64,000 bases of DNA from an uncultured SAR86 cluster bacterium (GTDB lineage Bacteria > Pseudomonadota > Gammaproteobacteria > Magnimaribacterales > D2472), in the NCBI GenBank assembly GCA_902628925.1, contig CACOPA010000001.1:326532-390531 (forward strand). Direction: 5' to 3'. Shown here in pieces: positions 44,284 through 64,000 of this stretch. The stretch's first letter is position 1. Each line of letters starts with the position of its first letter. A program made the translations under genes and the position numbers. The notes beneath the pieces were generated by a model. That model did no database searches. It was given only the letters and a program-made list of their open reading frames with translations, and was not told the origin of the DNA.

Positions 44284-45303
44284 ATGAAGATATTAGTGAC
44301 CGGGGGAGCAGGCTTTATTGGATCTGCCTTAGTAAGATTCTTAATTAACACTACTGAACATCAAGTCATCAATGTGGATAAACTTTCATATGCTTCTAAT
44401 ATGAAGTCACTTGATTCTGTTACTGATAACGAAAATTACAGTTTTTACAAATATGACATTTGCAATAGGGAAAAAATAGATATTCTTCTAGAGAAAGAAA
44501 AGCCAGATGTAATTTTTAACCTTGCTGCAGAGAGTCATGTAGATAATTCACTAGCTAATTCGCGTGATTTTATATTCAGCAACATAATAGGCACTTATGA
44601 GTTAATCGAATCAACACGAAATTACCTATTAAAAAATCAAAAAAATAATTTTAGATTTATTCATATTTCAACAGATGAAGTATTTGGGGATCTTTTACCA
44701 GATGACAGTCCGTTTACTGAAACCAATCCTTATAAACCTAGTAGTCCGTATTCTGCAAGTAAAGCTAGCTCAGATCATCTAGTGAGGTCATGGTTTCGAA
44801 GTTATGGATTCCCTGCAATTATTACTAATTGCTCCAATAATTATGGACCATACCAATATCCCGAAAAGCTAATACCATTAGTAATAAGCAAAGCCTTAAA
44901 AGGAGAATTACTACCTATATATGGAAATGGACTTCAAATAAGAGATTGGCTCCACGTAGAGGATCATGTTTCAGCTTTATATAAAGTTTTATTAAATGGA
45001 AAAGTTGGTGATTCATATAATATTGGTGGTAAAAATGAAAAAACAAATATATCAGTAGTGAAAGAGATTTGTAGAATCTTGGATGAGACTATAAAAGTAA
45101 AGCCAAATAATATTTCCTCGTTTAGCGATCTAATAAGTTTTGTAGAAGATAGACCAGGGCATGATTTAAGATACGCAATCGATGCAAGTAAAATTTCAAA
45201 AGAACTGGACTGGGATGTTAAATATAATTTTGACGATGGTCTCAAATATACTGTTGATTGGTATTTAGATAACATAAGCTGGGTTAGCGAAACCCTCAAG
45301 TAA
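44284..45303 (+). CDS. rfbB: dTDP-glucose 4,6-dehydratase
   Basis: Contains ILVTGGAGFIGS, HISTDEV.G and YSASKA.SDHL. Confidence 0.93.
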   Translation: MKILVTGGAGFIGSALVRFLINTTEHQVINVDKLSYASNMKSLDSVTDNENYSFYKYDICNREKIDILLEKEKPDVIFNLAAESHVDNSLANSRDFIFSNIIGTYELIESTRNYLLKNQKNNFRFIHISTDEVFGDLLPDDSPFTETNPYKPSSPYSASKASSDHLVRSWFRSYGFPAIITNCSNNYGPYQYPEKLIPLVISKALKGELLPIYGNGLQIRDWLHVEDHVSALYKVLLNGKVGDSYNIGGKNEKTNISVVKEICRILDETIKVKPNNISSFSDLISFVEDRPGHDLRYAIDASKISKELDWDVKYNFDDGLKYTVDWYLDNISWVSETLK

Positions 45304-45315
45304 TAGATATAAATA

Positions 45316-46200
45316 ATGAGCAAAGAATATAAAGGAATTGTCTTAGCAGGTGGTAACGGCACAAGATTACATCCTTTAACTTCCATTGTTTCAAAACAAC
45401 TTTTGCCTGTATATGACAAACCTATGATCTTTTATTCTTTGTCGACTTTAATGTTAGCAGGAATTAGAAATATCCTTCTCATCACTTCCAATGAACATAT
45501 AAGTCTATATAAATCATTAATTGGCGATGGGAATAACTTTGGAATAAATATTTCCTATGAAACTCAAGACAAACCAAACGGAATCGCTGAAGCATTTTTG
45601 ATAGGAAAAAAATTTATAGGTAACTCAAGTACAGCTTTAGTTTTAGGAGATAATATTTTTTATGGTCCCTCATTCTCAAGGATTTTACACTCAGCAAAAA
45701 AAAGAAAGAATGGCGCAACAATTTTTGCTTATAAAGTATCAGATCCAGAAAGATTTGGAGTCGTAAGTTTTGATAAAGATAAAGTTGCAACGTCAATTGA
45801 AGAAAAGCCGACTACTCCAAAATCTTCCTATGCTGTTACAGGTTTATACTTTTATGACAATAAAGTAATAAATTTTGCTGAAAACCTCACTCCTTCAGGG
45901 AGAGGTGAGCTAGAAATTACTGATATAAATAATATGTATCTTAAAAACAATGAACTAAACGTTGAAATTCTTGGAAGAGGTTTTTCTTGGCTTGATACTG
46001 GAACATTTAGCAGTCTGCATGAGGCATCTGCATTTGTTCAAACAGCTCAAAATAATCAAGGCCTCAAAATTGGTTGTCTTGAAGAGATCGCATGGAGGAA
46101 TGGCTGGATTTCTGATGATGAATTAATCTCTATTTCTAAAAGATATCCTAATAATGAATTTGGTGGTTATTTTAAAAATATACTTCACTCTGAGAAATGA
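45316..46200 (+). CDS. rfbA: Glucose-1-phosphate thymidylyltransferase
   Basis: Contains [15 protein letters not shown]...[21 protein letters not shown] and RGELEITD. Confidence 0.95.
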
Positions 46201-47081
46201 CTGTAAAAAAGGTTCTACTCACAGGATCTAATGGCCAATTAGCTAGGGCGTTACATAAAAACTTTCCAAAAAACCATAATCTAGTAGCCTTATCAAAAGA
46301 GGATTTTGATATTTCAAATATGACTCATGTAGAGAAATATTTAAAAAAAAATAAATTTGATTTAATTATTAATTCGGCGGCATATACAAATGTTGATTCA
46401 GCTGAAGATTATCCTAGATTAGCAACACTTGTAAATAAATTTGGATCTCAAAATCTTTCAAAAGCCTCAAGTGGGATGTGCCCAATCATACATATTTCTA
46501 CAGATTATGTTTTTAATGGAAGAAAAAAAACGCCATACCTAGAAGATGATGAAACTGATCCAATAAACAATTATGGTAAATCTAAGCTAGATGGAGAGCT
46601 TGAAATATCCTCTCATAATCCTGAAAGAATAATAATTAGGACTTCATGGTTATTTAGTGAATTTGGCAATAATTTTTTAGATACCATTTTAAGGATTTCT
46701 AAAGAAAAAAACTTAATTAATATTGTTTCAGATCAATATGGTGGTCCAACATCAGTAAATGATTTGTCACTTGCAATTATATTTATTGCTGAAGAAATCT
46801 TTGCTGAGAAGAAAATTTCATGGGGGACCTATCATTTCTCTGGATATCCATATACATCATGGAAAGAATTTGCACAGGAAATTGTGAAATGTGCATATAA
46901 GTATAACTTATTACCTCAATTGACTGATGTCAGAGGCATAAAAACTGAAGAATATATTACCAAAGCAACTAGACCAAGATCTTCAATGCTAGATAATTCA
47001 AAAATTTATAATGAATTCTCAATCAAACCATCAAACTGGAAAGAAGAGCTTAATAGAATTTTAAAATCATATGGAAATTAA
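46197..47081 (+). CDS. rfbD: dTDP-4-dehydrorhamnose reductase
   Basis: Contains [31 protein letters not shown]. Confidence 0.9.
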
Positions 47082-47622
47082 AAAAACAACAATAGAGGGA
47101 GTTCTATTAATTAAACAGCCAGTATATCAGGACGCAAGAGGATATTTTATGGAATCTTGGAACCAAGAAATGTTTAACGAGGCATTGAAAAAACAAATAA
47201 TTTTTGTTCAAGATAATTTTTCAACTTCAGTACATGGAGTTTTACGAGGATTACATTACCAGTATCCCAATTCACAAGGAAAATTAGTGCGTGTAACAAG
47301 AGGAGTAGTTCATGATGTAATTGTAGATATCAGAAGAAATTCTAAAACTTTTGGACAAAACCTTATCATTGAATTAAGTTCCGAAAACAATCTACAGATT
47401 TGGATGCCAGACGGCATTGCGCATGGCTTCCTAGTAACGAGTGAAAGTGCTGACTTTTTATACAAGGTAACAAGTTTATATGATAAGGATTCCGAGCATT
47501 GCATCGTGTGGAATGATGAAGACCTTAGAATTCCTTGGCCTCTTCATTTGCTTGATGGTGATCCTTTAGTGAGTGAGAAAGACAAACTTGGACTTAGCTT
47601 TAAGGAAGCTATAAAGTTTTAG
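47071..47622 (+). CDS. rfbC: dTDP-4-dehydrorhamnose 3,5-epimerase
   Basis: Contains D.RG.F.E, Q.N.S.S....LRGLH.Q, KLV.V..G.V.DV.VD.R and P.G.AHGF. Confidence 0.93.
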   Translation: MEIKKTTIEGVLLIKQPVYQDARGYFMESWNQEMFNEALKKQIIFVQDNFSTSVHGVLRGLHYQYPNSQGKLVRVTRGVVHDVIVDIRRNSKTFGQNLIIELSSENNLQIWMPDGIAHGFLVTSESADFLYKVTSLYDKDSEHCIVWNDEDLRIPWPLHLLDGDPLVSEKDKLGLSFKEAIKF

Positions 47623-47656
47623 TAAACTTAATGTAAAATCACCATTTGAATTGTCT

Positions 47657-47730
47657 GGCTGGATGGCAGAGTGGTTATGCAGCGGCCTGCAAAGCCGTGT
47701 ACGCCGGTTCGATTCCGGCTTCAGCCTCCA
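47657..47730 (+). tRNA. tRNA-Cys (GCA), CCA encoded
   Basis: GGCTGGA...TTCAGCC acceptor stem, anticodon arm GCGGC-CTGCAAA-GCCGT, T-arm GGTTCGATTCC. 74 nt, closely parallel to E. coli tRNA-Cys. Confidence 0.93.
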
Positions 47731-47769
47731 ATCATTTATAATATACATTGAAGGAGAATTATAGATAAA

Positions 47770-47856
47770 GCCCAGGTGGTGGAATTGGTAGACACAAGGG
47801 ATTTAAAATCCCTCGAAGGCAACTTCGTGCCGGTTCAAGTCCGGCTCTGGGCACCA
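47770..47856 (+). tRNA. tRNA-Leu (UAA), long variable arm, CCA encoded
   Basis: GCCCAGG...TCTGGGC acceptor stem, anticodon arm AGGGA-TTTAAAA-TCCCT, variable arm CGAAGGCAACTTCG, T-arm GGTTCAAGTCC. 87 nt. Confidence 0.93.
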
Positions 47857-47876
47857 TAAATTAATTAAATAAAAAA

Positions 47877-48776
47877 ATGAATAATCAAAGATATAGTTAC
47901 AACGAAAATGAAATTTCATTTACAGAATTATTCAAGTCGTTTAAAAATAATTTGCAGTTTATAGTTTTTGTTACTAGTGGCTTCGCTTTATTATCAATAA
48001 TTTACTCATTAACCTTACCAAATCTATTTACCTCACATTCAATTCTAAATTTCTCAAGCAGTTCACAATCTTCATCAAGCCAGAATTACTCAGGTGTAGC
48101 TAGCCTTGCAGGAATAAGGTTATCTGGAGGAAAAGCTGATAAAGCTGATGAAATGATAGAGCTAATTAAATCTCGTGGATTTTTAGAACATTTAATTTCC
48201 TTTGATCATGTTTTGCCCTCGATAATGATACCTAAAGTTAAGAGAGATGGAGCGGTAGATTTTTCCTCAAGATCTTACAACAGCGATGAGAAGACTTGGA
48301 GAAAGGGAGCTAAGCCATCAACACTCGAAGCTCATGAAATTTATATAAGAGATTTATTAAAAATTTGGAGAGATAAGGATACTGGATTTATTAATATTCA
48401 GATAACTCATATTTCTCCAAAATTTTCATATGAATTACTATCATTAGTAATTTCTCAATCAAATGAAATTATGAGGCTTAGGGACCTTGAGGATGCAAGT
48501 AATTCGTTGTCATTTTTAACAAAGGAGATTCAAAATACATCCATTATTGAGATGAGAAATTCAATATCATCTTTGCTGCAATCACAGCTTGAAACGAAAA
48601 TGGTTGCAAATATTAGACAAGATTACATTCTTCGTACTATTGAGCCTCCTTTTATACCTGAAAAGAAATCAGCTCCATCTCGTTTAATATTTGTTGTGTT
48701 AACAACAATTATTGGGTTTTCTGTGGCTTTATTGTTTGTTTTCTTTAGAGACTTCGTATTCACTAGGACTGAATAG
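47877..48776 (+). CDS. wzz: Wzz-like polysaccharide chain-length determinant (PCP-1 family)
   Basis: N-terminal TM (FIVFVTSGFALLSIIYSL), a long periplasmic coiled region, the proline motif EPPFIPEKKSAPSR and a C-terminal TM. Confidence 0.8.
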   Translation: MNNQRYSYNENEISFTELFKSFKNNLQFIVFVTSGFALLSIIYSLTLPNLFTSHSILNFSSSSQSSSSQNYSGVASLAGIRLSGGKADKADEMIELIKSRGFLEHLISFDHVLPSIMIPKVKRDGAVDFSSRSYNSDEKTWRKGAKPSTLEAHEIYIRDLLKIWRDKDTGFINIQITHISPKFSYELLSLVISQSNEIMRLRDLEDASNSLSFLTKEIQNTSIIEMRNSISSLLQSQLETKMVANIRQDYILRTIEPPFIPEKKSAPSRLIFVVLTTIIGFSVALLFVFFRDFVFTRTE

Positions 48777-49804
48777 TGTTCATCGGTAAAAGAGAAATTT
48801 CTCATAATTTTACTCCACTAGTTATTGCTGAAATTGGAATTAATCATGGGGGATCTCTCGAGTTGGCCAAGATAATGGTAAAGCTAGCTAGAGACTCAGG
48901 GGCTGAATGTGTAAAACATCAAACTCATTTTGTAGAGGATGAGATGACTAAGGAAGCTCAATCCATCTACCCACCAAATGCAGATGATTCTATATTTGAT
49001 GTAATAAAAAGTAATTCACTCAATATGGATGAAGAAATTGAGCTCAAGAAGTTTGCTGAAGATCTTGGCCTAATTTATATTTCAACTCCATTCTCAAGAC
49101 AAGCGGCAGACTTTCTGAATGAAATTAATATTCCAGCATTTAAAATAGGTTCGGGAGAATCAAATAATCTTGCACTTATTGATCACATAGCAAGCTTTAA
49201 AAAACCAATCATTATGTCCACTGGCATGCAATCTGTTGAGTCTATTAAACAATCAGTTAGTGTTATAAACGCGTATCATGATGAAATATGTTTACTTGAG
49301 TGCACAAATCTTTACCCATCACCTCCTGAAAATGTATCTCTGCAAGGCATAATAGATTTAAAAAATACTTTTCCAGATATACCAATTGGATTCTCTGACC
49401 ATTCCATTGGACCCTCAATGGCATTAGCTGCCCTTGGACTTGGTGCATCTATTATTGAAAGACATTTTACTGATTCAAGATTTAGAAGTGGTCCGGATAT
49501 TTCTTGTTCAATGGATCCTGCTGAACTTAGATTTTTAATTGATCGTTCAAAGGAGATACATATTGCTCTCAATAATCCCAAACAAAGAACTAAAGAAGAA
49601 GAAGCAGTTTATGCATTTGCAAGGAGCTCAATTGTAGCTGATCAAGATCTTAAGAAAGGAACTATTTTAGATAAGTCTCATATATGGGCTAGAAGGCCGG
49701 GCAATGGTGAAATTTCTGGCTCAGAATTTTTTGATATTTTAGGTAAAGAATTAATCAAAGATTTATCAAAAGGTGATCAACTAAAATGGAGCGACCTTAA
49801 GTAA
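48776..49804 (+). CDS. neuB: N-acetylneuraminate (sialic/nonulosonic acid) synthase
   Basis: Collinear by eye with N. meningitidis NeuB: IAEIGINHGGSL, GAE.VKHQTH, ISTPFSR.AA, IPAFKIGSGE.NN, STGM...ESI, HFTD....GPD..CSM, and a C-terminal SAF domain. GTG start shares one base (48776, TAGTG) with the wzz stop. Confidence 0.88.
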   Translation: MFIGKREISHNFTPLVIAEIGINHGGSLELAKIMVKLARDSGAECVKHQTHFVEDEMTKEAQSIYPPNADDSIFDVIKSNSLNMDEEIELKKFAEDLGLIYISTPFSRQAADFLNEINIPAFKIGSGESNNLALIDHIASFKKPIIMSTGMQSVESIKQSVSVINAYHDEICLLECTNLYPSPPENVSLQGIIDLKNTFPDIPIGFSDHSIGPSMALAALGLGASIIERHFTDSRFRSGPDISCSMDPAELRFLIDRSKEIHIALNNPKQRTKEEEAVYAFARSSIVADQDLKKGTILDKSHIWARRPGNGEISGSEFFDILGKELIKDLSKGDQLKWSDLK

Positions 49805-49813
49805 TTAATAAAA

Positions 49814-50491
49814 ATGATTTTTTCTTTAATTCCAGCTCGTGGTGGCTCAAAAGGTATAAAAGATAAAAATCTTTCTAAGGTTGGCAATCTATCATTGGTT
49901 CTAGGAGCTATCAAATGTGCTGAGAGTAGTGGTATTTTTGATAATATAGTTGTTACCAGCGATTCATTAAAAATAAAGAAAGAGATTCAAGCAAAAAACG
50001 CTGAATTCTTGAGAAGACCTAAGTCAATTTCAACGGATTCAGCCTCAGCACGAGAGGTTGTTGAGCATTTTATATTGAGTAAAGACCTTAAAGACGATGA
50101 TATCGTAGTTTACTTGCAACCCACATCTCCTTTTAGAACAAGTAAAAATATTCATGAAGCTCTTGATATTTTTTACAGAGAAAAATGCGCAGTTACAAGT
50201 GTAAGCGAAGAAAAATTGTATTATGAAAAATATCTCACATTAGATAATGCTGAAAAACTTCGAGAGCTATTTATTAAAAGTAGTAGCTCCAATAGACAGT
50301 CTCTAAATTATGCTTTTAAACCAAATGGAGCGATTTATATTTTCAATAAACTTATGTTTGAGACAGAAGATGGATTTCCAATTAATGGCTCCTGTCCATA
50401 TTTTATGAATAAAATTGAAAGCCTGGATATAGATGATCCAAAAGACTTAGAAATTTGTAGAGCTATTTCAAAAAACTTAAATGAAAAATAA
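49814..50491 (+). CDS. neuA: CMP-N-acylneuraminate synthetase (cytidylyltransferase)
   Basis: Contains IPARGGSKGIKDKN, LQPTSPFR and NGAIY. This is the short form without an esterase domain. Confidence 0.85.
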   Translation: MIFSLIPARGGSKGIKDKNLSKVGNLSLVLGAIKCAESSGIFDNIVVTSDSLKIKKEIQAKNAEFLRRPKSISTDSASAREVVEHFILSKDLKDDDIVVYLQPTSPFRTSKNIHEALDIFYREKCAVTSVSEEKLYYEKYLTLDNAEKLRELFIKSSSSNRQSLNYAFKPNGAIYIFNKLMFETEDGFPINGSCPYFMNKIESLDIDDPKDLEICRAISKNLNEK

Positions 50492-51623
50492 AAAAATAAT
50501 TTTTTTAACAGGAACGAGAGCTGACTTTGGAAAGCAGAAAAGCTTAATAGAAAGCGTCTATGGCCATAAAGATTTTGAAGTATATATTTTTGTAACTGGT
50601 ATGCATCTTGAGAAAGAATATGGATATACATTTGAGGAGGTTAAATCTAATTTCCCAAAAAATATTATCGCCTTTAAAAATTCCAAAAAGAATAATTCGA
50701 TGGATGAGATTTTGGCTAATACTATTTTAGGCTTCACAAAAGTTGTAAAGGAGATAATTCCTGATTTTGTTGTAGTTCATGGTGACAGAGTTGAGGCTCT
50801 TGCAGGTGCAATAGTGGGAGCATTAAATAATATTAGAACTTTGCACATTGAGGGCGGTGAGAGATCTGGAACTATCGATGAATCTATAAGGCATTCTATA
50901 AGTAAGTTATCTCATATTCATTTAGTTGCCAATAATGAAGCTATGCACAGGTTGAGATTGTTGGGAGAAGATGAAAAATCTATTTTTATTATTGGATCTC
51001 CAGATATAGATATTATGAGGTCTGATAAATTACCTAATTTTGAGAAAGTATTAAAGCACTATGAGATACCATTTAAAGATTATGGAATTTTACTTTTTCA
51101 TCCCGTCACCACAAATAGCAAAGATCTACCTAAATCCGTAAAGAATCTTGTAGATTCAATCATTGATTCCAAGAAAAGATTTATTGTGATTCTTCCAAAT
51201 AATGATTTAGGTACAGAGATTATTCAATTTGAGTACAAGAGATTTACAAAAAATGAAAACATTAAGGTTTTTCCTTCTATACGCTTTGAGTATTTTTTAA
51301 GTCTACTCAAAAATTCTCAATTCATAATTGGAAATTCCAGTGCTGGAATTAGAGAAGCTCCTTTTTACGGGATTCCAACAATTAATATTGGAGATAGGCA
51401 AAGCAATAGAGCAGAGGGTGAATCTATATTAAATATAGATTTTTCCAAAAAACAAATACTTGAAGCTATAAACAATTCGTTAACTAAAAAATTCAACAGA
51501 ACTAGAGATTTTGGAGATGGAACAAGCGATAATAGGTTCTTGAAATTGCTTGAGGGGGATGATTTTTCGAATATAAAAATTCAAAAAAACTTTATTGATT
51601 TTGTTTCCATGAACACTCTTTAA
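50481..51623 (+). CDS. neuC: UDP-N-acetylglucosamine 2-epimerase (hydrolysing)
   Basis: Contains I.FLTGTRADFGK, VHGDRVEALAGAIVGALNNI...HIEGGE.SGTIDE..RH.ISKLSH.H and GNSSAGIREAP. Confidence 0.85.
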   Translation: MKNKKIIFLTGTRADFGKQKSLIESVYGHKDFEVYIFVTGMHLEKEYGYTFEEVKSNFPKNIIAFKNSKKNNSMDEILANTILGFTKVVKEIIPDFVVVHGDRVEALAGAIVGALNNIRTLHIEGGERSGTIDESIRHSISKLSHIHLVANNEAMHRLRLLGEDEKSIFIIGSPDIDIMRSDKLPNFEKVLKHYEIPFKDYGILLFHPVTTNSKDLPKSVKNLVDSIIDSKKRFIVILPNNDLGTEIIQFEYKRFTKNENIKVFPSIRFEYFLSLLKNSQFIIGNSSAGIREAPFYGIPTINIGDRQSNRAEGESILNIDFSKKQILEAINNSLTKKFNRTRDFGDGTSDNRFLKLLEGDDFSNIKIQKNFIDFVSMNTL

Positions 51624-51626
51624 AAT

Positions 51627-52937
51627 ATGAAAATTTCAATCGTTGGAACTGGCTATGTAGGTTTAGTTACTGGTATTTGTCTTGCAGAATTGGGCCACAA
51701 TGTTCTTTGCATTGATAGTGATAAAAACAAAATATCTCAGCTTAAAAAAGGTATTTCTCCAATCATTGAGAAAGGGATTAATTTAGCTCTAAAAAAAACG
51801 ATTTCATCAAACAACATTTCATTTTCTAATGAATTATCTTTAGCTTGTAATTTTAGTGATGTAATTTTTATAGCAGTTGGCACTCCAACAAAAAGTGATT
51901 CAAATGACGCTGACTTATCTATCTTAAATCATGTTTTAAGTGAGATTAAAAATTATGCAAACAGGACCAAAGTAATTGTAATTAAATCAACCGTACCTAT
52001 TGGCACAAATGATCACTTATCAAAGTTATACCCTAAAGAGTCAAGCAATCTTGTTTTTATATCAAATCCTGAATTTCTGAGAGAAGGAAATGCACTATTT
52101 GATGCAAGAAATCCTGACAGAATTGTGATTGGTGGAGTTGACGAAAATTCTATAAAAAAAGTAAAGTCGATTTATCGCAGATTTAAAAATAAAAAAATCA
52201 TTGTCACTGATCCAACTTCATCTGAATTGATTAAATATGCTTCTAACGCTTTTTTAGCATCAAAAATTTCTTTTGTTAATGAGATTGCATCAATTGCTCT
52301 TAAGGTAAATGCGAGCATATCAGACATTACATATGGTATGGGGTTAGATCCTAGGATTGGTAATTTATTCTTAAAGCCTGGTCCAGGTTATGGCGGCTCC
52401 TGCTTCCCTAAAGATGTAAAGGCAATAGATTTTTTTGCAAAAGAAAAAAACTTACACTTACCAATAATCTCAAATATCGAGGTTTCTAATCTGATCATCA
52501 AAAAGAAAATTTTAGAAAGAATTAAAATGGTGCTCGGAAAAAAGAGTAAGGTTAAAAATAAAATAATTACAATTTTTGGAGTCTCATTCAAGCCTGATAC
52601 TGATGATGTAAGAGAGTCGGCATCAGTTTTTCTCATAAAAAATCTTACTAAGCTTGGTTTGAGGATCAAGCTTTATGACCCAATCCTTTCAGATACTAAT
52701 CAAATACCATTTAAAAATAGTGAATGGTATTCATCAGCCTACGATGCAGTTTTGAAATCTCAACTTTTAATTATCATGAATGACTCTAGGGAATTTCTAA
52801 ACCTTAAGCTTAAAAATATAGCATCTTCGATGCAAAGAAAGAGGATTATGGATCTCCGAAACTTATTCAATGTAGATGACCTTTCTCAAGCTGGCTTTGA
52901 AGAAGTTTATAACCTAGATAAAGACATTGTTACATAG
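51627..52937 (+). CDS. ugd: UDP-glucose 6-dehydrogenase
   Basis: Contains KISIVGTGYVGLVTG, NPEFLREG, the catalytic-Cys motif GGSCFPKDV, and FKP.TDD.RES. Confidence 0.88.
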   Translation: MKISIVGTGYVGLVTGICLAELGHNVLCIDSDKNKISQLKKGISPIIEKGINLALKKTISSNNISFSNELSLACNFSDVIFIAVGTPTKSDSNDADLSILNHVLSEIKNYANRTKVIVIKSTVPIGTNDHLSKLYPKESSNLVFISNPEFLREGNALFDARNPDRIVIGGVDENSIKKVKSIYRRFKNKKIIVTDPTSSELIKYASNAFLASKISFVNEIASIALKVNASISDITYGMGLDPRIGNLFLKPGPGYGGSCFPKDVKAIDFFAKEKNLHLPIISNIEVSNLIIKKKILERIKMVLGKKSKVKNKIITIFGVSFKPDTDDVRESASVFLIKNLTKLGLRIKLYDPILSDTNQIPFKNSEWYSSAYDAVLKSQLLIIMNDSREFLNLKLKNIASSMQRKRIMDLRNLFNVDDLSQAGFEEVYNLDKDIVT

Positions 52938-54333
52938 AAATAAATTTAAAATCTTACTCCCTATAGAGAATATTGCTCGTGAATTTGATTATAAATTAAT
53001 TTTATCGAGTTACTTATTAGATAGAGATTATGAAATCATTATCGCTCAACATGATCTTCTATTTTTAATATCAAAGTTTATAAAAAACGGTGTATATATT
53101 GGAAAGAATACAATGACACGACTTAATAATGGAAAATGGTTCTCTGACAGGCACTATAAAATAAAAGCTAACAATATCTCTATATTTCATCTTGATGAAG
53201 AAGGCGCTGTTTATTATGGAAGAGAAGAAGACTGGGTTAAAAAGATATCAGAACTTCGAGTTGATAAGCATGCTTTTGACGAGAATGATTTTGTCCTCAC
53301 TTGGGGTAATTTCCAAGCTGATGTTTTCAAAGAGAATACCTCTGCTTATTCAAATAAAATTTTCTGTACTGGACATCCAAAGTTTGATCTTTTGAAAAAA
53401 AAATATAGCTTCTTTTATGAAACGGATGTTAGGCGCATTAAAAATGAGTTTGAGAACTATATTCTTGTAAACACAAATTTTGCTCATTTTAATAATTCTC
53501 TTGGGAACAAAGATTCACTTTCTCCTCGAATGGGCTATAAAGTAGATAATAATGATGAAAGGATTACCTCAATCAATCAATGGTCATACGTTGGAAAAAC
53601 ATTTTTAGATTTTATCAAGCTAATCACTGCATTGAGCATAGAATTTTCTGATAAGCACTTTGTTATAAGACCTCATCCTTCGGAAAGCCTTGAAATCTAT
53701 AATAAAATTTTTGATGATGTAAAAAACGTAACTGTAAAAAGAGATGGAAGCGTTATCCCATGGATTTTAGCATCTGATATAGTGATTCATGATGGGTGCA
53801 CAACAGCACTTGAAGCTTATTTTGCTACAAAACCCATTATTAATTATCATCCGCATCATGAAGAAAAAACAAATTTATATCTGCCAAACAAGGTAGGAAT
53901 TAAATGCCATGATATAGATTCTGTTAAAGAAGCAATCAACAACAAAGACAACTTACTGCAAAATTCAAATTATAGAAGGCTTGAAGAGGATACTCTTTCC
54001 ATGTCACTAGTAAAAAATATTTCCAATTTTGAAGATTCATTTCATCAAATAAAAAATTTAATACATGCAGAAATTGATAAGAATTCTCAATCTCAAGTCC
54101 AAAATTTTCAGTTAAAATTTTTCATGGCCTTCTCGAGTGCAATAAATTTTCTCAAGCTTATTTTTAGACCATTATTTTCAGAAAAGCAAAAGGATTATCT
54201 TGCATACAAGGCAATATTTCCCGGATTTGATAAAAAATTAGTTAAACATAAAATATCTCTTTTAAATAAGCATAGTAACCACATAGATATAAAATTTTTA
54301 AGTGATCAAATTATCATTCTAAATAAAAAATGA
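52927..54333 (+). CDS. Orphan GT-B-like surface-carbohydrate biosynthesis protein; candidate sialyltransferase
   Basis: 468 aa with no family recognisable by eye. Contains LDEEGAVYY (nt 53194-53205), TGHPKFD, VIRPHPSES (HP at nt 53674-53679) and HDGCTTALEA. TTG start overlaps ugd, and there is an ATGA overlap with the downstream epimerase. Confidence 0.4.
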   Translation: MLHRNKFKILLPIENIAREFDYKLILSSYLLDRDYEIIIAQHDLLFLISKFIKNGVYIGKNTMTRLNNGKWFSDRHYKIKANNISIFHLDEEGAVYYGREEDWVKKISELRVDKHAFDENDFVLTWGNFQADVFKENTSAYSNKIFCTGHPKFDLLKKKYSFFYETDVRRIKNEFENYILVNTNFAHFNNSLGNKDSLSPRMGYKVDNNDERITSINQWSYVGKTFLDFIKLITALSIEFSDKHFVIRPHPSESLEIYNKIFDDVKNVTVKRDGSVIPWILASDIVIHDGCTTALEAYFATKPIINYHPHHEEKTNLYLPNKVGIKCHDIDSVKEAINNKDNLLQNSNYRRLEEDTLSMSLVKNISNFEDSFHQIKNLIHAEIDKNSQSQVQNFQLKFFMAFSSAINFLKLIFRPLFSEKQKDYLAYKAIFPGFDKKLVKHKISLLNKHSNHIDIKFLSDQIIILNKK

Positions 54334-55319
54334 AAGTTCTCGTAACAGGATCAGCAGGGTTTATAGGATTCCATTTAAGTAAACTCCTTTTAGAGAAAGG
54401 CATTACAGTTATTGGTATTGATGGCATGACTGATTATTACGATATAAAACTTAAAGAAGACAGAAATAAAATACTTGAGAGCTATGATCACTTTACTTTC
54501 CATAGAAATATGCTGTCTGATACCGAAAAAATAATTGAAATAGTTAAGAAAAATAATGTGGATACCATAGTCCATTTAGCAGCACAAGCAGGCGTTAGAT
54601 ATTCAATTGAGAATCCAAAGTCATATATCGACAGCAATATATATGGATCATTTAGCATACTTGAAGTTGCGAGGATTTGTTCAATTGAGCATTTACTTTG
54701 CGCATCTACTTCTTCAGTCTATGGTTCTAATGTTGATATGCCATTTATTGAGAATCAGCGAACTGACTCTCAGCTAACGATTTATTCAGCAACAAAAAAA
54801 TCTATGGAATCCATGTGCCATGCTTATTCTGATCTATGGAAAATACCAATAACCGTTTTTAGATTTTTTACTGTTTATGGCCCATGGGGTCGCCCTGATA
54901 TGGCTTTATTTAAATTTGTTCGATCAGCATTAAATAATGAATCAATTGATGTTTATAACAATGGTAATATGTTTAGGGATTTTACATATGTTAAAGATTT
55001 AGTTGAGGCCATTAGACTATTGAGCTCTGTTCCACCTAGCGAAGAAATGGAATCGGATGGGTATTTTTTATCACCATACAGGATTATAAATATTGGAAAT
55101 TCAACTAAGGTTAAACTGAATGACTTTATCCAAGCTATTGAAAAGAAACTTGACTTAAAGATAAAGAAAAATTTTATGGAGATGCAAAAAGGGGATGTAC
55201 ATGCTACTTGGGCAGATTGCTCTGAACTTGAGAATTTAATTGGATTCAAGCCTTCTATAAAAGTTGAGGAAGGTATTTCAGAATTCATTGACTGGTACAA
55301 AGAATATTACAGTAATTAG
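54330..55319 (+). CDS. UDP-glucuronate 4-epimerase (NAD-dependent SDR)
   Basis: Contains VLVTGSAGFIG, YSATKKS, and the hallmark FRFFTVYGPWGRPDMA of the GlcA/GalA epimerase subfamily. Confidence 0.8.
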   Translation: MKVLVTGSAGFIGFHLSKLLLEKGITVIGIDGMTDYYDIKLKEDRNKILESYDHFTFHRNMLSDTEKIIEIVKKNNVDTIVHLAAQAGVRYSIENPKSYIDSNIYGSFSILEVARICSIEHLLCASTSSVYGSNVDMPFIENQRTDSQLTIYSATKKSMESMCHAYSDLWKIPITVFRFFTVYGPWGRPDMALFKFVRSALNNESIDVYNNGNMFRDFTYVKDLVEAIRLLSSVPPSEEMESDGYFLSPYRIINIGNSTKVKLNDFIQAIEKKLDLKIKKNFMEMQKGDVHATWADCSELENLIGFKPSIKVEEGISEFIDWYKEYYSN

Positions 55320-55326
55320 GTCTTGT

Positions 55327-56607
55327 ATGAATTTAAAAGATATCAAATTAGGAATTATTGGGCTTGGTTATGTTGGTTTGCCCTTGGCCTTAGAATTTGG
55401 AAAACAACGAAAAGTTGTAGGCTTTGATATAAGCAAAATAAGAGTAAGTGAGTTAAAAAAAAATTTCGACTCTAGTGGTGAATTTTCAAAAAATGAAATA
55501 AAAGCATCGCAAAAACTTAAATTTTCATCAGAATTGAATGATTTGAGAGCCTGTAATACTTTTATTATCTCAGTCCCAACACCCATTAATAAAAAAAATC
55601 AGCCTGATCTAAGAATTTTAAAAACAGCTACCAAAATGGTAGGTCAGATTTTAAAAAAAAGTGACATAGTTATTTTTGAGTCAACAGTATATCCTGGAAC
55701 TACAGAGGAGATATGTGTTCCTTTGCTCGAGAAAGAGTCAAATTTGATCTTTAACAAAAATTTCTTTGTTGGATATTCTCCTGAAAGGATTAATCCTGGT
55801 GATAAAGTTCATACCTTAAAAGATATTGTGAAAGTAACTTCTGGATCAGATGGTTTTTCATCAAGACTGATTGACTCACTATATGCATCAATAGTTAAAG
55901 CTGGAACATATTTGGCTGACAGTATTAAAACAGCCGAAGCTGCCAAAATTATCGAAAATACTCAGAGAGACTTAAACATTGCCTTGATTAATGAGCTTGC
56001 AATTATTTTTGAAAAGATGGACTTAGATACTTCCAGTGTTCTCCAAGCAGCTAACACTAAGTGGAACTTCTTAGACTTTAGGCCGGGTCTTGTTGGCGGT
56101 CATTGCATTGGAGTAGATCCATATTATTTAACATATAAGGCTAAAGAGCTTGGCTTAAATCCTCAGCTTATATTGGCCGGCAGATCATTAAATGATTCTA
56201 TGAGCAAATACGTAGCCACGAAATTTTACAAACAGATAAAGAAAATCTATCCAAAACCCACAAAACACAAAGTTGTTATATTTGGCGCCTCATTCAAAGA
56301 AGATTGTAAAGATGTGCGTAATTCAAAAATATTCGATGTGGTCAGTGAGTTGAACAAAAGAAATTGCCAAGTAGATATTTTCGATCCTAATTTGAAAAAA
56401 AATGATCTAATTTATTATCAGGATCTAAATTTCACCTTTAGAGCAAAATTAAAAATATCAAATTATCATGGAATTCTATTAGGAGTACCCCATAGAGGAT
56501 TTAAATCTAAGTCTGCAAGCTGGTATAGAAAATTTGGACTTAAGAACGCAGTTTTTTTTGATCTCAAATCTGTGTACCCAATCAATCAGTCTGATATTAG
56601 GCTTTAA
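55327..56607 (+). CDS. UDP-N-acetyl-D-glucosamine 6-dehydrogenase family (TviB/WbpO-like)
   Basis: Near-collinear by eye with Salmonella TviB: IIGLGYVGLPLA.EFGK...VVGFD, VPTPIN...QPDL, ESTVYPG.TEE.CVP, GYSPERINPGDK, ENTQRDLNIAL.NELAIIF, FRPGLVGGHCIGVDPYYL, C-terminal QSD.RL. Start at MNLKD (55327). Confidence 0.85.
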   Translation: MNLKDIKLGIIGLGYVGLPLALEFGKQRKVVGFDISKIRVSELKKNFDSSGEFSKNEIKASQKLKFSSELNDLRACNTFIISVPTPINKKNQPDLRILKTATKMVGQILKKSDIVIFESTVYPGTTEEICVPLLEKESNLIFNKNFFVGYSPERINPGDKVHTLKDIVKVTSGSDGFSSRLIDSLYASIVKAGTYLADSIKTAEAAKIIENTQRDLNIALINELAIIFEKMDLDTSSVLQAANTKWNFLDFRPGLVGGHCIGVDPYYLTYKAKELGLNPQLILAGRSLNDSMSKYVATKFYKQIKKIYPKPTKHKVVIFGASFKEDCKDVRNSKIFDVVSELNKRNCQVDIFDPNLKKNDLIYYQDLNFTFRAKLKISNYHGILLGVPHRGFKSKSASWYRKFGLKNAVFFDLKSVYPINQSDIRL

Positions 56608-56613: not shown

Positions 56614-58431
56614 ATGAAATTAATAAAGAAAATCATCTCATTGCTTTCAGCAAAAGAAAAAAAGCAAGGGATATTAGTGCTTTTGATTGCAATATTCATG
56701 GCAATATTTGAAGTTCTTGGTGTAGCTTCAGTTACTCCATTCCTAGCTGTCATGTCAGATCCAAGCATTGTTGAGTCTAATTCAACACTATCTAAAATAT
56801 ATAACGATCTAAATTTCAAAAGCATAAATAATTTTCTAATTTTTCTAGGGATTATTTCTTTTTCTATAATGCTAATTTCAGCATTTGTTAGAACATTGGG
56901 TATATATTTAATAACAAAATTTGCTCAGTTAAGACGGCACTCAATCTCACTAGTTTTATTGAATAGTTATTTATCAAAAGACTATGAGTTTTTCCTAGCC
57001 AGGGATACGGCTGAATTATCAAAAACTTTACTTTCTGAAGTTGATCAAGTTGTAAATGGTGTCATACAGCCTTTTTCATCATTGGTAGCTTATTCATCAG
57101 CCTCAATAGCACTATTACTATTTTTAATATTAATTAATCCAATTACAACGCTTGCTGCATTAGGTTTGATAGGCCTGTCTTTTTTATTAATTTTTCTATT
57201 GGTACGACCAAAGATGGCACAACTGGGATCAAAACAAATCGAAGCCAATAAGGATCGTTTCAAAGCTGCATCAGAGGCATTAAATGGAATTAAAGAAATT
57301 AAGTTATACAGGCGAGAAAGTTTCTATTTAAACCAATTTAGCAAACCTACATATTTAATGGCGAGGTACATTTCTTTCAACCAAATTTTGTCGCAAATAC
57401 CAAGGTTTTTAATTGAAGCATTTGCTTTTGGAGGAATAATTTTACTTGCCATAATGCTTCTTCAAAAATCAGGTGGAATAGAAGCAAATAATCTTGGAAA
57501 CATAATACCTCTTCTAGGATTATATGCATTTTCTGGGTTGAAGTTATTACCTGCAATTCAGGTTGTATATCAATCATCAACTCAAATCCAATTTTGGCAA
57601 TCAGCTATAAATAATTTGTTAAAAGATTTTATTAAAGGCTTGGAGGCTAAAGCTACAAATGAAATGACAGGAGATTCTATAAATTTAGGAATGTTTGATG
57701 CATTAGAGTTAAAAAACCTATCTTTCTCTTATCCAAAATCAAATCAACAGGCCTTAGAAGAAATCTCTTTTAGTATACAAAGAAATGATTCTTTGGCAGT
57801 AATTGGTAGATCTGGTTCTGGTAAATCTACGTTAGTTGATATTATTTTAGGACTTATTAAGCCAACTGGAGGCGATATTTTAATTAATAATTGTAATTTA
57901 AGAGAAAATATTATCAGGAGCTGGCAAAGCAAAATTGGATATGTTCCGCAAGAAATATACTTACTTGATAGCTCAATATATGAAAATATAGCTTTTGGAA
58001 TTGCTCTAGAGAAGATTGATAGAGAAAGGGTAAGGTCGGTATCAAAAATTGCTCAAATCTCTTCATTTATTGAAAATGAACTTGAATTTAAATATGAGCA
58101 TATTATCGGCGAAAGAGGAATACAGCTTTCAGGAGGTCAGAGACAAAGAATAGGTATTGCAAGAGCGTTATATAATGATCCCGAGATTATTGTTTTTGAT
58201 GAAGCAACTAGCTCATTAGATAATAAAACTGAAAAGGATATTATCGATTCCTTGGGATTGGTAGCAAAAGACAAAACACTAATAGTTATTGCTCATAGAA
58301 TGAGCTCAATATCTATATGTAACAAAGTTCTAATTTTAAATAATGGCTCAGTGTCAAACTTTGGTAATTACAATGAATTAAAAGATAGTGATATGTTTAT
58401 GAAAGAGCTTCTAAAGATAGAATCCCAATGA
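56614..58431 (+). CDS. Fused TMD-NBD ABC exporter (MsbA/PglK-like half transporter)
   Basis: Six hydrophobic helices in the N-terminal 320 aa. Walker A is GRSGSGKST, the signature is LSGGQRQRIGIARAL, and Walker B is IIVFDEATSSLD. Confidence 0.88.
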   Translation: MKLIKKIISLLSAKEKKQGILVLLIAIFMAIFEVLGVASVTPFLAVMSDPSIVESNSTLSKIYNDLNFKSINNFLIFLGIISFSIMLISAFVRTLGIYLITKFAQLRRHSISLVLLNSYLSKDYEFFLARDTAELSKTLLSEVDQVVNGVIQPFSSLVAYSSASIALLLFLILINPITTLAALGLIGLSFLLIFLLVRPKMAQLGSKQIEANKDRFKAASEALNGIKEIKLYRRESFYLNQFSKPTYLMARYISFNQILSQIPRFLIEAFAFGGIILLAIMLLQKSGGIEANNLGNIIPLLGLYAFSGLKLLPAIQVVYQSSTQIQFWQSAINNLLKDFIKGLEAKATNEMTGDSINLGMFDALELKNLSFSYPKSNQQALEEISFSIQRNDSLAVIGRSGSGKSTLVDIILGLIKPTGGDILINNCNLRENIIRSWQSKIGYVPQEIYLLDSSIYENIAFGIALEKIDRERVRSVSKIAQISSFIENELEFKYEHIIGERGIQLSGGQRQRIGIARALYNDPEIIVFDEATSSLDNKTEKDIIDSLGLVAKDKTLIVIAHRMSSISICNKVLILNNGSVSNFGNYNELKDSDMFMKELLKIESQ

Positions 58432-59381
58432 ATACTTTTGAGAACTTATTTTTAAATAATAAAATTACTGAAAAATATTCAAATGGAGTTATTTCTCTCA
58501 TAGAAGATGATTATCATGATAATTTTGGCTTTCAGTGGAACCAATTTAATAAGTTACAGCTAGATTCATTCAACGGATCAAATGAGTCTCTTGATAGGTT
58601 ATTATTTCAAAGCAAGTTAAAGGAAGGTGATTTTAAAGACAAATTAGTTTTGGAATTGGGAGCAGGAAATGGAAGATTTACAGAGATCTTGCTTAAACTT
58701 GGAGCAAAAGTTGTTGCAGTGGATTACTCAACGGCTATTAATGCCAATTATGAGAATCATAAATCATATGTAAATGATAATAAGTTAATGTTAGTGCGAG
58801 GAAGCTTGTTTGATCTTCCGCTTAAGAAAGAGGTTTTTGATATTGTAATTTGTTATGGTGTTATTCAGCACACTGGTGATAATAAGGGATGTTTAGACAC
58901 TATTTCTGAATATGTAAAAAAAGATGGTTTATTGCTAGTGGATATATATAGCAATAGCATAAAACACTTCAACCCATTTATATATTTAATAAGACCGTTC
59001 TTCTTTAGGATAAGTGGAGACAGGAAAAAGCTTCGAGTTGTTGAAAATTTTGTTAATAAAGTTTTTCCTGTTCAGCTAAAAGTATTGGGTTATTTGCATA
59101 ATAGAAAGGGAATATTCAAATACTTGAAATTTGTAATAAATAGATCGCCAAACTCAGTTTACGGCATCAATCTTTATCTAGACGGAAAGATTTCTATCAA
59201 GCACGCAAGAGACTGGTCCATTTGTGATACTTATGATGCATGGATGCCTAAACACGACCATCCAGTTTCTATGCGTAAATGGAGGAAATTACTTAATAAT
59301 CTTGCAATTCAAAAGGAATTTGATGTTATGAGTGTTTTTGAGTGTGGACAGGGGAATGCAGCAGTCCTAAAGAAGACTTAA
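58428..59381 (+). CDS. Class I SAM-dependent methyltransferase
   Basis: Motif I is VLELGAGNGRFTE. Also LGAKVVAVDYS, DIVICYGVIQH and GLLLVD. ATGA overlap with the ABC exporter gene. Confidence 0.8.
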   Translation: MNTFENLFLNNKITEKYSNGVISLIEDDYHDNFGFQWNQFNKLQLDSFNGSNESLDRLLFQSKLKEGDFKDKLVLELGAGNGRFTEILLKLGAKVVAVDYSTAINANYENHKSYVNDNKLMLVRGSLFDLPLKKEVFDIVICYGVIQHTGDNKGCLDTISEYVKKDGLLLVDIYSNSIKHFNPFIYLIRPFFFRISGDRKKLRVVENFVNKVFPVQLKVLGYLHNRKGIFKYLKFVINRSPNSVYGINLYLDGKISIKHARDWSICDTYDAWMPKHDHPVSMRKWRKLLNNLAIQKEFDVMSVFECGQGNAAVLKKT

Positions 59382-62529: not shown

Positions 62530-64000
62530 ATGTGTGGAATTGCTGGCCTTATTTCTAAAGTTCCAATTAATTCTCAAAAAAAAGACAGCTTTGAAAATGT
62601 TTTAAGAAGTTTTGATCATAGAGGTCCCGATTATTCTGATACCTGGATTGATAATTCAAATAATATAATTCTTGGACATAATAGGCTCTCTATAATTGAC
62701 CTATCAGCTTCTGGTCATCAGCCAATGTCCTCAATGTCAGGCAAATTAAAAATTGTTTTTAACGGAGAAATATATAACTTTCAGTATTTAAAGAAAAAAC
62801 TTGATTCTGTTAAAGAAATTCGCTGGAAAGGATCCTCTGACACTGAAATTCTTATTGAGCATATAGATCACTTTGGGTTAAGCAATACTCTTGAGAGTAT
62901 TGAAGGAATGTTTGCATTTGCTCTATGGGATATTGAGAAAAAGAACCTGCAATTGGTTCGAGATAGAGCTGGCGAGAAACCGCTTTATTATGCTCTCTTA
63001 AATGGTGAATTTATTTTTGCATCAGAGATTCATGAAATTAATAATTTTTTTATGAATACCTTGAATATCGATCATGAAGCATTAAAAAAATATTTAAAAA
63101 AATCTTGCATCTCTGCACCTTCTTCAATCTTTGAAGAGATTAAAAAGTTAGAACCTGGTCAAACTTTAAAATTTGACGCTACTAAATTTAACTTCTCTGT
63201 ATCACATTATTGGGAGCTTAAAGATATCATTCAAAAAGAAACAAAAAGACGTTCAATTAAATTAGACAGCACTTCTGCAAAAAAGAGTACATTGAATATT
63301 CTAAAAGAGGTTGTTAATTCGCAAATAATAAGTGATGTCCCCATTGGTGCTTTTTTATCAGGAGGAATTGATTCAACCTTAATTAGTGCTATTGCAAATG
63401 ATTCATTAAGCGGAAAGTTAAATACATTCTCAATAAGCTTTGATGACAAATCTTTCGATGAATCAAGTCATGCAAAGGTTGTAGCCGATAAATTAAAAAC
63501 AAATCACATTGAATTTAAGCTCCATGAGGATGAAGCGTTAAGCCTACTTAAGCAAGTTCCATATATTTATGATGAACCGTTTGCAGATTCATCTCAGATC
63601 CCAACTCTTTTGTTATGTAGAGAATCTAGAAAATATATTACTGTTGCATTAACAGGTGATGGAGGCGATGAAGTATTCGGTGGCTATAACAGATACATCT
63701 ATGGACCAAGGTTCTTGAGTCTTAAAAAAATTATTCCAAATAAGCTCTTTACAAGTTTCGGTATAAATATTTCTGCAAAACCTCTTATTAAATTAATGAC
63801 TAAATTAAGATTTTTACCTGCATCATCGCAATTACGTCTATCAAGATTCGTAGATGTTTTCAGGTCTTCAAAAGATTTGAGTGGTTTCTATGAAAATATT
63901 ACTGATCTAAGCAATCTTTCAGATGAATTACTGATTAAAAAATCTTATGAAAATATACCACCGACAGATAATGAAGAAATATTTGATCTTGATATTAATG
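62530..64000 (+). CDS. Asparagine synthase (glutamine-hydrolysing)-like amidotransferase (WbpS-like), runs off the right edge
   Basis: Absent from the ORF track because no stop lies in the window. My translation begins MCGIAGLISK...HRGPD...LGHNRLSIIDLS..GHQPM..., with Cys2 as the Ntn nucleophile. The PP-loop is SGGIDSTLISAIA (about 63358-63396). The frame stayed open in the stretches I translated (about 62530-63000 and 63001-63720); 63721-64000 was not translated. Confidence 0.85.
   Translation, partial: MCGIAGLISKVPINSQKKDSFENVLRSFDHRGPDYSDTWIDNSNNIILGHNRLSIIDLSASGHQPMSSMSGKLKIVFNGEIYNFQYLKKKLDSVKEIRWKGSSDTEILIEHIDHFGLSNTLESIEGMFAFALWDIEKKNLQLVRDRAGEKPLYYALLNGEFIFASEIHEINNFFMNTLNIDHEALKKYLKKSCISAPSSIFEEIKKLEPGQTLKFDATKFNFSVSHYWELKDIIQKETKRRSIKLDSTSAKKSTLNILKEVVNSQIISDVPIGAFLSGGIDSTLISAIANDSLSGKLNTFSISFDDKSFDESSHAKVVADKLKTNHIEFKLHEDEALSLLKQVPYIYDEPFADSSQIPTLLLCRESRKYITVALTGDGGDEVFGGYNRYIYGPRFLSLKKIIPNKLFTSFGINISAKPLIKLMTKLRFLPASSQLRLSRFVDVFRSSKDLSGFYENITDLSNLSDELLIKKSYENIPPTDNEEIFDLDIN

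Follow-up and report, generated by a model that had tools for sequence, protein, structure and literature searches.

A TIGR04396 protein of a SAR86 surface-polysaccharide locus as a candidate CMP-nonulosonate transferase

The window analyzed in this study is a 64,000-nucleotide stretch of contig CACOPA010000001.1 from an uncultured SAR86 cluster bacterium (assembly GCA_902628925.1), which carries a surface-polysaccharide locus with genes for nonulosonic acid biosynthesis. We focused on the gene at positions 52927 to 54333 of this window and propose, with a probability of about 0.62, that its 468-residue product, hereafter the target, is a glycosyltransferase (GT) of the GT-B fold that uses a cytidine 5'-monophosphate (CMP)-nonulosonate as donor and adds the locally made nonulosonic acid to the glycan of the operon. 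The proposal is based on the membership of the target in the NCBIfam family TIGR04396, its predicted fold, the conservation of its residues, its homology to proteins of Tannerella forsythia, and the genomic association of the family with nonulosonic acid genes.

In the proposed mechanism, the soluble GT-B enzyme would take the CMP-nonulosonic acid made by the upstream NeuC, NeuB-like, and NeuA-like enzymes, with a donor sugar that is, by gene content, probably N-acetylneuraminic acid (Neu5Ac) or a close derivative, and would attach it to a sugar of the lipid-linked surface glycan that the operon itself assembles; among the candidate acceptors are the uronic acids from the flanking dehydrogenases. 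The C-terminal Rossmann domain would bind CMP via R248-x-H250-P251 and the C291-T292-T293...E296 loop, whereas E91/E92, in the loop after strand 4 of the N-domain and predicted to face the interdomain cleft, would deprotonate the acceptor hydroxyl. The departing CMP would be stabilized by H250, and the glycan would then be exported by the PglK/MsbA-like transporter. This mechanism is drawn by analogy with the sialyltransferases of families GT38, GT52, and GT80; the donor, the roles of the catalytic residues, the acceptor, and the stereochemistry are inferred.

Family membership, conserved motifs and predicted fold

The open reading frame (ORF) of the target runs on the plus strand from TTG at 52927 to TGA at 54333. 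Its start codon lies 11 nucleotides within the 3' end of ugd, whose TAG stop codon occupies positions 52935-52937, and the ATGA at 54330-54333 is shared by its stop codon and the start codon of the following gene, which encodes a protein with the N-terminus MKVLVTGSAG. These features, namely the 468-residue ORF, the TTG within the end of ugd, and the ATGA overlap, had been described in an original prediction made from the sequence without database searches, and were confirmed. A start downstream of the TTG was rejected because the next in-frame ATG corresponds to M63 and would delete the conserved P-I-E...R-E motif.

The same prediction regarded the protein as an orphan that resembles nothing known and may define a new family, and in both respects it has to be revised. 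The target matches the TIGR04396 model, termed "surface carbohydrate biosynthesis protein," with 316 bits at a curated cutoff of 125, and the alignment is full-length, placing residues 9-445 on model positions 1-425 of 427. By this clear membership the target is not an orphan and is classified as a new member of a named but uncharacterized family; TIGR04396 and a related model, BFO_1060, already exist. All 51 aligned homologs match TIGR04396 as well, and they resemble the target in length, motifs, and C-terminal extension. A single-sequence search retrieved 141 homologs from many phyla, and a search with the 51-sequence profile among 1.84 billion cluster representatives (clusters at 50% identity) yielded 3,594 representatives at E <= 1e-30 and 10,712 at E <= 0.001. 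In species-representative genomes, a collection that does not include the genome of the window, a scan with a 15-sequence alignment found 528 relatives, the best of which is 37% identical to the target; the identical protein is present on many TARA ocean metagenome contigs with an unchanged gene order. Pfam (E <= 10) gave no more than two chance-level matches for the target, and searches of PDB sequences with the target alone and with the 51-sequence profile returned nothing meaningful. The homologs from Bacillaceae match residues 9 to ~340 only and may constitute a separate TIGR04396 subfamily.

Residue conservation was derived from the 51-sequence alignment (the target and 50 homologs). The four motifs picked out by the original prediction, LDEEGAVYY (residues 89-97), GHPKFD (149-154), VIRPHPSES (246-254), and DGCTTALEA (289-297), are present at the residues it gave and contain conserved or invariant residues of the family. 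Bare [DE][DE]G and HP motifs are weak evidence by themselves: their expected numbers from the composition are 0.22 and 0.45, respectively, and the target has three HP dipeptides. The EEG at residues 91-93 and the HP at 250-251 are meaningful because they are kept in 46-51 of the 51 homologs, whereas the HP at 308 is not conserved across this set. Invariant residues are E92, G127, G149, L180, R248, P249, P251, and C291; those conserved in at least 90% of the sequences are P12, E14, R18, E19, K60, E91, G93, W126, and P151, together with N182, N189, H250, E253, N267, T292, T293, and E296. The conserved motifs are as follows:

52960..52983, plus strand: N-terminal motif P12-I-E14-x3-R18-E19; P12, E14, R18, and E19 at least 90% conserved
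53194..53205, plus strand: D90-E91-E92-G93; E91 in 46/51, E92 in 51/51, G93 in 48/51
53371..53388, plus strand: G149-H-P151-K-F-D154; G149 invariant, P151 in 50/51, H150 in 27/51
53668..53685, plus strand: R248-P249-H250-P251-S-E253; R248, P249, and P251 invariant, H250 in 50/51
53794..53814, plus strand: G290-C291-T292-T293-A-L-E296; Ser/Thr-rich loop opening helix 293-299

An AlphaFold2 model built from the 51-sequence alignment (predicted local distance difference test score, pLDDT, 94; predicted template modelling score, pTM, 0.92) consists of two Rossmann-like domains, roughly residues 1-165 and 176-345, in a GT-B arrangement, followed by a C-terminal extension with a helical region and a terminal beta-hairpin (393-467). 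Foldseek matches the model to many GT-B proteins with a probability of 1.00, so that model and search agree with the earlier assignment of the protein to the GT-B enzymes. The conserved residues are placed in the model where GT-B enzymes bind donor and acceptor. DEEG sits in the loop after the N-domain strand 84-89 and may represent the catalytic base region; GHPKFD lies where the N-domain ends, close to the linker between the domains (DSSP of the model). RPHPxE follows the C-domain strand 244-248, where R248-x-H250-P251 presumably contacts the cytosine and phosphate of CMP, and the GCTTxxE loop is a putative phosphate and ribose contact, the GCTT segment being aligned by hhalign with INSTAGISA of KpsS and GNSSSGIRE of NeuC.

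The (K/R)xHP signature of sialyltransferases and retaining transferases of 3-deoxy-D-manno-octulosonate (Kdo) contacts the cytosine ring and phosphate (PMC12887879), and the RPHP of the target fits this CMP-binding signature. Mutagenesis of NmB-polyST, whose E153A and G154A variants have no activity, and the structure of PmST1 have validated the D/E-D/E-G and HP motifs (PMC2169525). In bacterial GT-B sialyltransferases (GT38, GT52, and GT80), the D/E-D/E-G motif of the N-domain and the HP motif of the C-domain are 125-170 residues apart (125 in GT38 and ~170 in GT80); in the target, these motifs lie in the corresponding domains at a spacing of 158 residues. The polysialyltransferase NeuS of Escherichia coli UTI89 reads SLIEEGTGTY and IFIKPHPKEP, in which the LIEEGTG and FIKPHPKE given for E. 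coli K1 NeuS in the original prediction are found, and is collinear with the target, SLIEEGTGTY corresponding to HLDEEGAVYY and IFIKPHPKEP to FVIRPHPSES, with a Ser/Thr-rich loop in each protein. By hhalign, the RPHP segment is aligned with IKPHPKE of NeuS, YKPHPD of KpsC, and IKHHPMD of KpsS.

The relatives with a known phenotype belong to the BFO_1060 family (NF046086, BFO_1060_trans). The target matches this model over residues 78-338 with 77.7 bits (E 9e-22), as do all 50 aligned homologs (best E 2e-29), one of which, P0082, aligns over model positions 3-340 of 365. BFO_1060 of strain 92A2 is the ortholog of Tanf_01245 and TFUB4_00887 in T. forsythia; deletion mutants lack only the terminal pseudaminic (Pse) or legionaminic (Leg) acid derivative of the O-glycan and regain it on complementation (PMC5420450). 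Among the matches listed by a profile search for distant named relatives of the target, all are TIGR04396 members.

Genomic context of the target and its family

The target belongs to one same-strand gene cluster that extends from 44284, after pgsA, to past 64000, the end of the window. A scan of this operon for promoters and terminators gave scores at or below shuffle expectation, with no convincing internal site. The cluster contains the following genes:

44284..48776, plus strand: beginning of the surface-polysaccharide locus, with rmlB, rmlA, rmlD, rmlC, and a gene for a Wzz-like chain-length protein
48776..49804, plus strand: NeuB-like nonulosonic acid synthase; TIGR03569 347.6 bits (cutoff 399.65), PseI 240.6 bits, PF03102 and SAF domains
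49814..50491, plus strand: NeuA-like CMP-nonulosonate synthetase, 225 residues; PF02348 CTP_transf_3, PseF model 105 bits, below its cutoff
50481..51623, plus strand: NeuC, hydrolyzing uridine diphosphate (UDP)-N-acetylglucosamine (GlcNAc) 2-epimerase; TIGR03568 410 bits (cutoff 235.9)
51627..52937, plus strand: ugd, UDP-glucose 6-dehydrogenase; TIGR03026 416.8 bits, overlaps the target start
52927..54333, plus strand: target, TIGR04396, putative CMP-nonulosonate transferase; 316 bits, GT-B model
54330..55319, plus strand: nucleoside diphosphate (NDP)-sugar epimerase/dehydratase belonging to the short-chain dehydrogenases/reductases (SDR); start overlaps the target stop (ATGA)
55327..56607, plus strand: TviB-like UDP-N-acetylhexosamine 6-dehydrogenase; NF011729 511 bits
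56614..58431, plus strand: PglK/MsbA-like fused ATP-binding cassette (ABC) exporter, 2.3 kb downstream of the target
58428-59381, plus strand: methyltransferase
59383-60462, plus strand: GT4 glycosyltransferase
60480-62528, plus strand: two-domain GT2 and GT4 transferase
62530..64000, plus strand, continuing past the window end: AsnB-like amidotransferase; on the identical TARA contigs, a 646-residue product that has the domains GATase_7 and Asn_synthase

The original prediction read the locus as a complete route to CMP-sialic acid. NeuC passes its cutoff and a cytidylyltransferase is present, the gene order being neuB-neuA-neuC; the NeuB-like protein scores below its cutoff, so that the route is likely only. 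The exact nonulosonic acid made at the locus is likewise uncertain because the synthase lies under the NeuB equivalog cutoff. No LegB, LegC, LegH, PseB, PseC, PseG, or PseH gene was found among the window ORFs scanned, and the simplest product predicted from gene content is therefore probably CMP-Neu5Ac or a derivative. Models of GT38, GT42, GT52, and GT80 had no match among the larger window ORFs scanned, which include every gene of the locus, and to this extent the earlier statement that no recognizable sialyltransferase of these families is encoded holds. The other transferases of the window are the GT4 and GT2/GT4 proteins, and GT2 and GT4 are families not known to use CMP-nonulosonates. 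Among the transferase candidates of the window, the target alone has a signature of the CMP type, and by elimination it is the only candidate for nonulosonic acid transfer.

For the association of TIGR04396 genes elsewhere, 80 genome loci were fetched and searched with profiles built from the window NeuB, NeuA, and NeuC; co-occurrence was counted within 10 kb at the 45 loci whose two flanks are each 9 kb or longer. The co-occurrence with neuB, legI, or pseI genes that the original prediction had put forward as a check is borne out at 82-89% of these loci: a NeuB-like synthase is encoded at 37 (82%), and a synthase or CMP-synthetase-like gene at 40 (89%). Among the loci of full-length homologs, 17 of 19 contain a NeuB-like synthase, and the median distance to this gene over all loci having one is 2.7 kb. 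Other sugar genes are less frequent; tblastn over all 80 loci found NeuB-like genes at 50, RmlB-like at 24, RmlA-like at 8, and Ugd-like at 3. Classification at E <= 1e-90 of 51 synthases, comprising the 50 neighbors and that of the window, gave 21 of the NeuB/LegI type, 8 of the PseI type, and a divergent remainder.

In several genomes, the TIGR04396 gene is embedded in a biosynthetic operon. For example, in Idiomarina (L088) the start of the homolog overlaps the last gene of a Leg cluster, an SDR oxidoreductase gene just after the cytidylyltransferase gene, and this operon is complete, with LegB-, LegC-, and LegG-like proteins, NeuB, an acetyltransferase, PtmE-, PtmF-, and PtmA-like proteins, and the cytidylyltransferase. 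In a marine sulfur oxidizer (L089), the homolog is located downstream of NeuB and NeuC, with a start that overlaps the gene of the cytidylyltransferase, and on a plasmid of Azospirillum thermophilum (L090) the homolog, annotated as "surface carbohydrate biosynthesis protein," lies between a methyltransferase gene and neuB within a Leg operon. In the lipopolysaccharide (LPS) island of Herbaspirillum, neuABC is followed by a gene with the same annotation, for which a role in Neu5Ac transfer was suggested (PMC6679464). The 803-residue protein P0050 consists of PseG (156 bits, above cutoff) fused to a full TIGR04396 domain; this is one case on a 4.2-kb Logan contig, and an assembly or gene-calling artefact is possible.

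A fused MsbA/PglK-type exporter gene adjoins the TIGR04396 gene at ~16 of the 80 loci and lies within 6.5 kb at 29 of them; the pairing of transferase and exporter looks recurrent, and the family may often work as a module with the adjacent exporter. The exporter-adjacent loci are:

Same strand: L002, L003, L005-L010, L013, L014, L022, L035, L037, L074
Divergent: L025, L027

Several additional observations concern the loci and the genome. About 21 of the 50 NeuB-like neighbors match neither NeuB/LegI nor PseI at E <= 1e-90 and are 21-26% identical to the window NeuB; several divergent NeuB-like ORFs are unusually long (~500 residues; L044-L046, L048, L053, L064, L065, L072, and L079), and the divergent proteins may represent a group of ulosonic-acid synthases. 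Possible roles of the AsnB-like protein, whose gene runs past the window end, are the amidation of a uronic acid and the formation of an acetamidino group on the nonulosonic acid, and the Idiomarina homolog is also followed by a gene with weak similarity to Asn_synthase (a "faint" Pfam match). The mechanically assigned starts TTG 55264 and TTG 60459 of two downstream genes are probably too long; the TARA gene calls begin at 55327 (426 residues) and 60480 (682 residues). The window has 34% guanine plus cytosine and contains the gammaproteobacterial block gyrA-serC-pheA-hisC-tyrA-aroA-cmk-rpsA. The rpsA product (38323-39630) has 435 residues only and covers positions 1-433 of the ~560-position S1 models, and the 666-residue pheT product (23663-25663) lacks a Pfam match over its first ~95 residues, the region that in longer PheT proteins holds a tRNA-binding domain. 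The short rpsA and pheT fit a streamlined marine genome.

Alternative explanations

Several observations weigh against a role of the target in nonulosonic acid transfer. The only mention of TIGR04396 found in the literature is a passing one (PMC6679464), and no member is known to have been assayed or knocked out. By its score of 77.7 bits, far under the curated NF046086 cutoff of 200, the target is a relative and not a member of the BFO_1060 family, and the D/E-D/E-G motif that Tomek et al. (PMC5420450) assigned to Tanf_01245 lies in the C-terminal half of that protein and may not correspond to the DEEG of the target. SpsB of Bacillus subtilis, with DEG and HP motifs, a TagB domain, and a gene next to those for legionaminic acid, was predicted by a like argument to be a Leg transferase and proved dispensable for Leg transfer (PMC7439481). 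In hhalign comparisons, which were weak and local, the target profile reached a probability of 5.9% with NeuS (23 columns around HP), 9.8% with a 10-sequence GT38 alignment (38 columns around HP), 2.5% with KpsS, and 25% with KpsC; in favor of the proposal, each comparison picks the same HP segment of the target, and the KpsS and KpsC alignments extend through the Ser/Thr loop. A Foldseek search of the PDB with the whole model ranks UDP-GlcNAc 2-epimerases first (E 3e-9), and the top 50 matches of either the whole protein or the C-domain include no structure of GT38, GT42, GT52, or GT80. Finally, 8 of the 45 loci have no NeuB-like gene within 10 kb. Two of them, Nitrospira sp. M1 (L087) and Halobacillus andaensis (L043), have no nonulosonic acid genes of any kind within this distance. 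The TIGR04396 gene is surrounded in Nitrospira by genes for GT61, GDSL lipases, an ABC exporter, and an Elm1-like protein, and in Halobacillus by those for a Capsule_synth-like protein, a GDSL lipase, and a pyruvyl transferase. TIGR04396 may be functionally non-uniform.

The strongest competitor, which we nevertheless consider unlikely, is a GT-B enzyme that travels with the nonulosonic acid genes and uses an ordinary NDP-sugar donor, for instance to add the next sugar or to build the acceptor. Co-occurrence alone cannot separate a nonulosonic acid transferase from an enzyme that glycosylates this sugar, and the structural neighbors of the target are mostly UDP-binding GT-B proteins. However, the invariant R-x-H-P is a cytidine-nucleotide signature (PMC12887879), the sugar added by the Tannerella relatives is a terminal nonulosonic acid (PMC5420450), and no other gene of the window could supply the nonulosonic acid transferase.

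The structural comparison is relevant to two further readings, each of which we judge rather improbable. In the whole-model Foldseek search, the epimerases are accompanied at the top by TagF and LpxB (E ~1e-8, template modelling scores 0.45-0.57). The C-domain was also modelled separately, which removes effects of the interdomain angle (pLDDT 95); epimerases again come first (E 4e-5), with KpsC (E 1e-3), TarL, and LpxB lower, and the ranking is not shifted towards sialyltransferases. The predicted structure supports a GT-B nucleotide-sugar enzyme without singling out sialyltransferases; its Foldseek matches include TagF, KpsC, and TarL, all of which release CMP.

Under the first of these readings, the target would act like TagF/TagB or KpsC/KpsS and use a different donor with a CMP leaving group, such as cytidine diphosphate (CDP)-glycerol, CDP-ribitol, or CMP-Kdo, to add a polyol phosphate or an octulosonic acid. 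Besides the structural matches, it is favored by the HP and Ser/Thr-loop segment common to these families, by weak matches of 4 of the 51 homologs to PF04464 (TagF/TagB; best E 5e-5) and of one to PF05159 (Capsule_synth, the GT107 family of KpsC/KpsS; E 0.055), and by the ~21 divergent neighboring synthases, which might make other ulosonic acids. The target itself matches neither PF04464 nor PF05159 at E <= 10, no tagD, tarIJ, or kdsB-type genes are present at the locus, and the consistent partners of the family are NeuB, LegI, or PseI together with a CTP_transf_3 cytidylyltransferase.

The second reading, about equally improbable, is that the target is no transferase but a GT-B protein of epimerase- or hydrolase-like function, acting on a nucleotide-linked precursor in the nonulosonic acid pathway. 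In addition to the Foldseek ranking of the whole protein and the C-domain, four homologs weakly match PF02350 (UDP-GlcNAc 2-epimerase), although the target has no such match, and an alignment of NeuC proteins is matched by hhalign with a probability of 71.6% over target residues 263-378 only. The N-terminal P-I-E...R-E motif of the target may also be reminiscent of the R-P-E motif of epimerases. The NeuC match, however, covers the generic C-terminal nucleotide-binding half and aligns none of the invariant catalytic Asp, Glu, and His residues of the epimerase N-domain, the loci already have NeuC/LegG or PseG and hence pathways that are complete without the target, and the homologous Tannerella proteins behave as transferases (PMC5420450). 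The original prediction had named as evidence against itself a best match to a non-sialyl family in which the DEEG and HP residues are not conserved; the best structural matches are indeed non-sialyl (epimerases, TagF, and KpsC), but DEEG and HP are conserved.

Least likely of all is a processive polymerase that makes a nonulosonic acid homopolymer in the manner of the GT38 polysialyltransferases, for which the collinear NeuS-like motifs (xLxEEG...Y, IKPHPKE, and the Ser/Thr loop), the Wzz-like protein and ABC exporter of the locus, and a precomputed PF07388 match of homolog P0082 could be cited, and against which stand the lack of significant global similarity to GT38, the presence in the locus of three further GT domains and of pathways for rhamnose, uronic acid, and hexosaminuronic acid, which point to a heteropolymer, and the addition of a single terminal residue by the Tannerella relatives (PMC5420450).

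A CMP-nonulosonate-dependent transferase is thus the reading we retain. The sialyl- or nonulosonyltransferase activity originally put forward for the target survives as the best explanation of conservation, fold, Tannerella homology, and co-occurrence, with Neu5Ac or another nonulosonic acid as the putative sugar transferred.

Significance and comparison with known systems

Few transferases of legionaminic and pseudaminic acids are known, and in many bacterial producers of nonulosonic acids no sialyltransferase can be recognized. We give even odds to the broader proposal that TIGR04396 is a widespread "missing" family of sialic, legionaminic, and pseudaminic acid transferases of environmental bacteria, which would form a new CAZy family with the target as a member of the CMP-Neu5Ac type. 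If this is true, thousands of proteins annotated as "surface carbohydrate biosynthesis protein" would gain a function, new catalysts would be available for the chemoenzymatic synthesis of bacterial sialic-acid analogues, and the surface sialylation of abundant marine bacteria would become predictable from sequence. The functional idea is not new to specialists, as the Tannerella work, the NCBIfam models, and the Herbaspirillum genome paper (PMC6679464) point there; the remaining interest, which is moderate, lies in a very large family (~3,600 clusters) that is not known to have a biochemical assignment.

By every test run, TIGR04396 is distinct from GT38, GT42, GT52, GT80, GT107, and GT118 and is related to the Tannerella enzymes. 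The GT38 enzymes NeuS and NmB-polyST (PF07388) share a predicted GT-B fold with the target and differ from it in the N-domain and the C-terminal extension, and the target has no PF07388 match at E <= 10. The Pfam models of GT42, GT52, and GT80 match neither the target (E <= 10) nor the 51 homologs (E <= 1). The retaining ulosonic acid transferases KpsC/KpsS (GT107), WbbB (GT99), KpsS1 (GT118), and KrkA (GT140) have a CMP-sugar donor, the (K/R)xHP signature, and a GT-B-like C-domain. Of these, KpsS1 is a Pse5Ac7Ac transferase that is ~30% identical to KpsS (PMC12887879), an identity that the target does not share. TagF, TagB, and TarL resemble the target by a whole-protein structural match (E 1e-8, template modelling scores 0.45-0.56); however, genes for CDP-polyols are not present in the family loci, nor tagD and tarIJ in the locus of the window. 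As to the UDP-GlcNAc 2-epimerases (NeuC/WecB), the locus already has a bona fide NeuC gene, which lies two genes upstream of the target.

A close parallel is provided by the BFO_1060 family, which is collinear with the target from the N-terminus through the DEEG, RPHP, and GCTT regions and is likewise encoded beside nonulosonic acid biosynthesis genes. TIGR04396 proteins differ from this family by an extra C-terminal region of ~120 residues. The Tannerella relatives, which carry a TagB-domain annotation (PMC5420450), act in protein O-glycosylation, whereas the locus of the target is LPS- or capsule-like, and their activity is known from genetics and not from a purified enzyme (PMC5420450). In Tannerella the acceptor is a known uronic acid, ManNAcA (PMC5420450), and in the SAR86 locus the target gene is flanked by uronic-acid genes.

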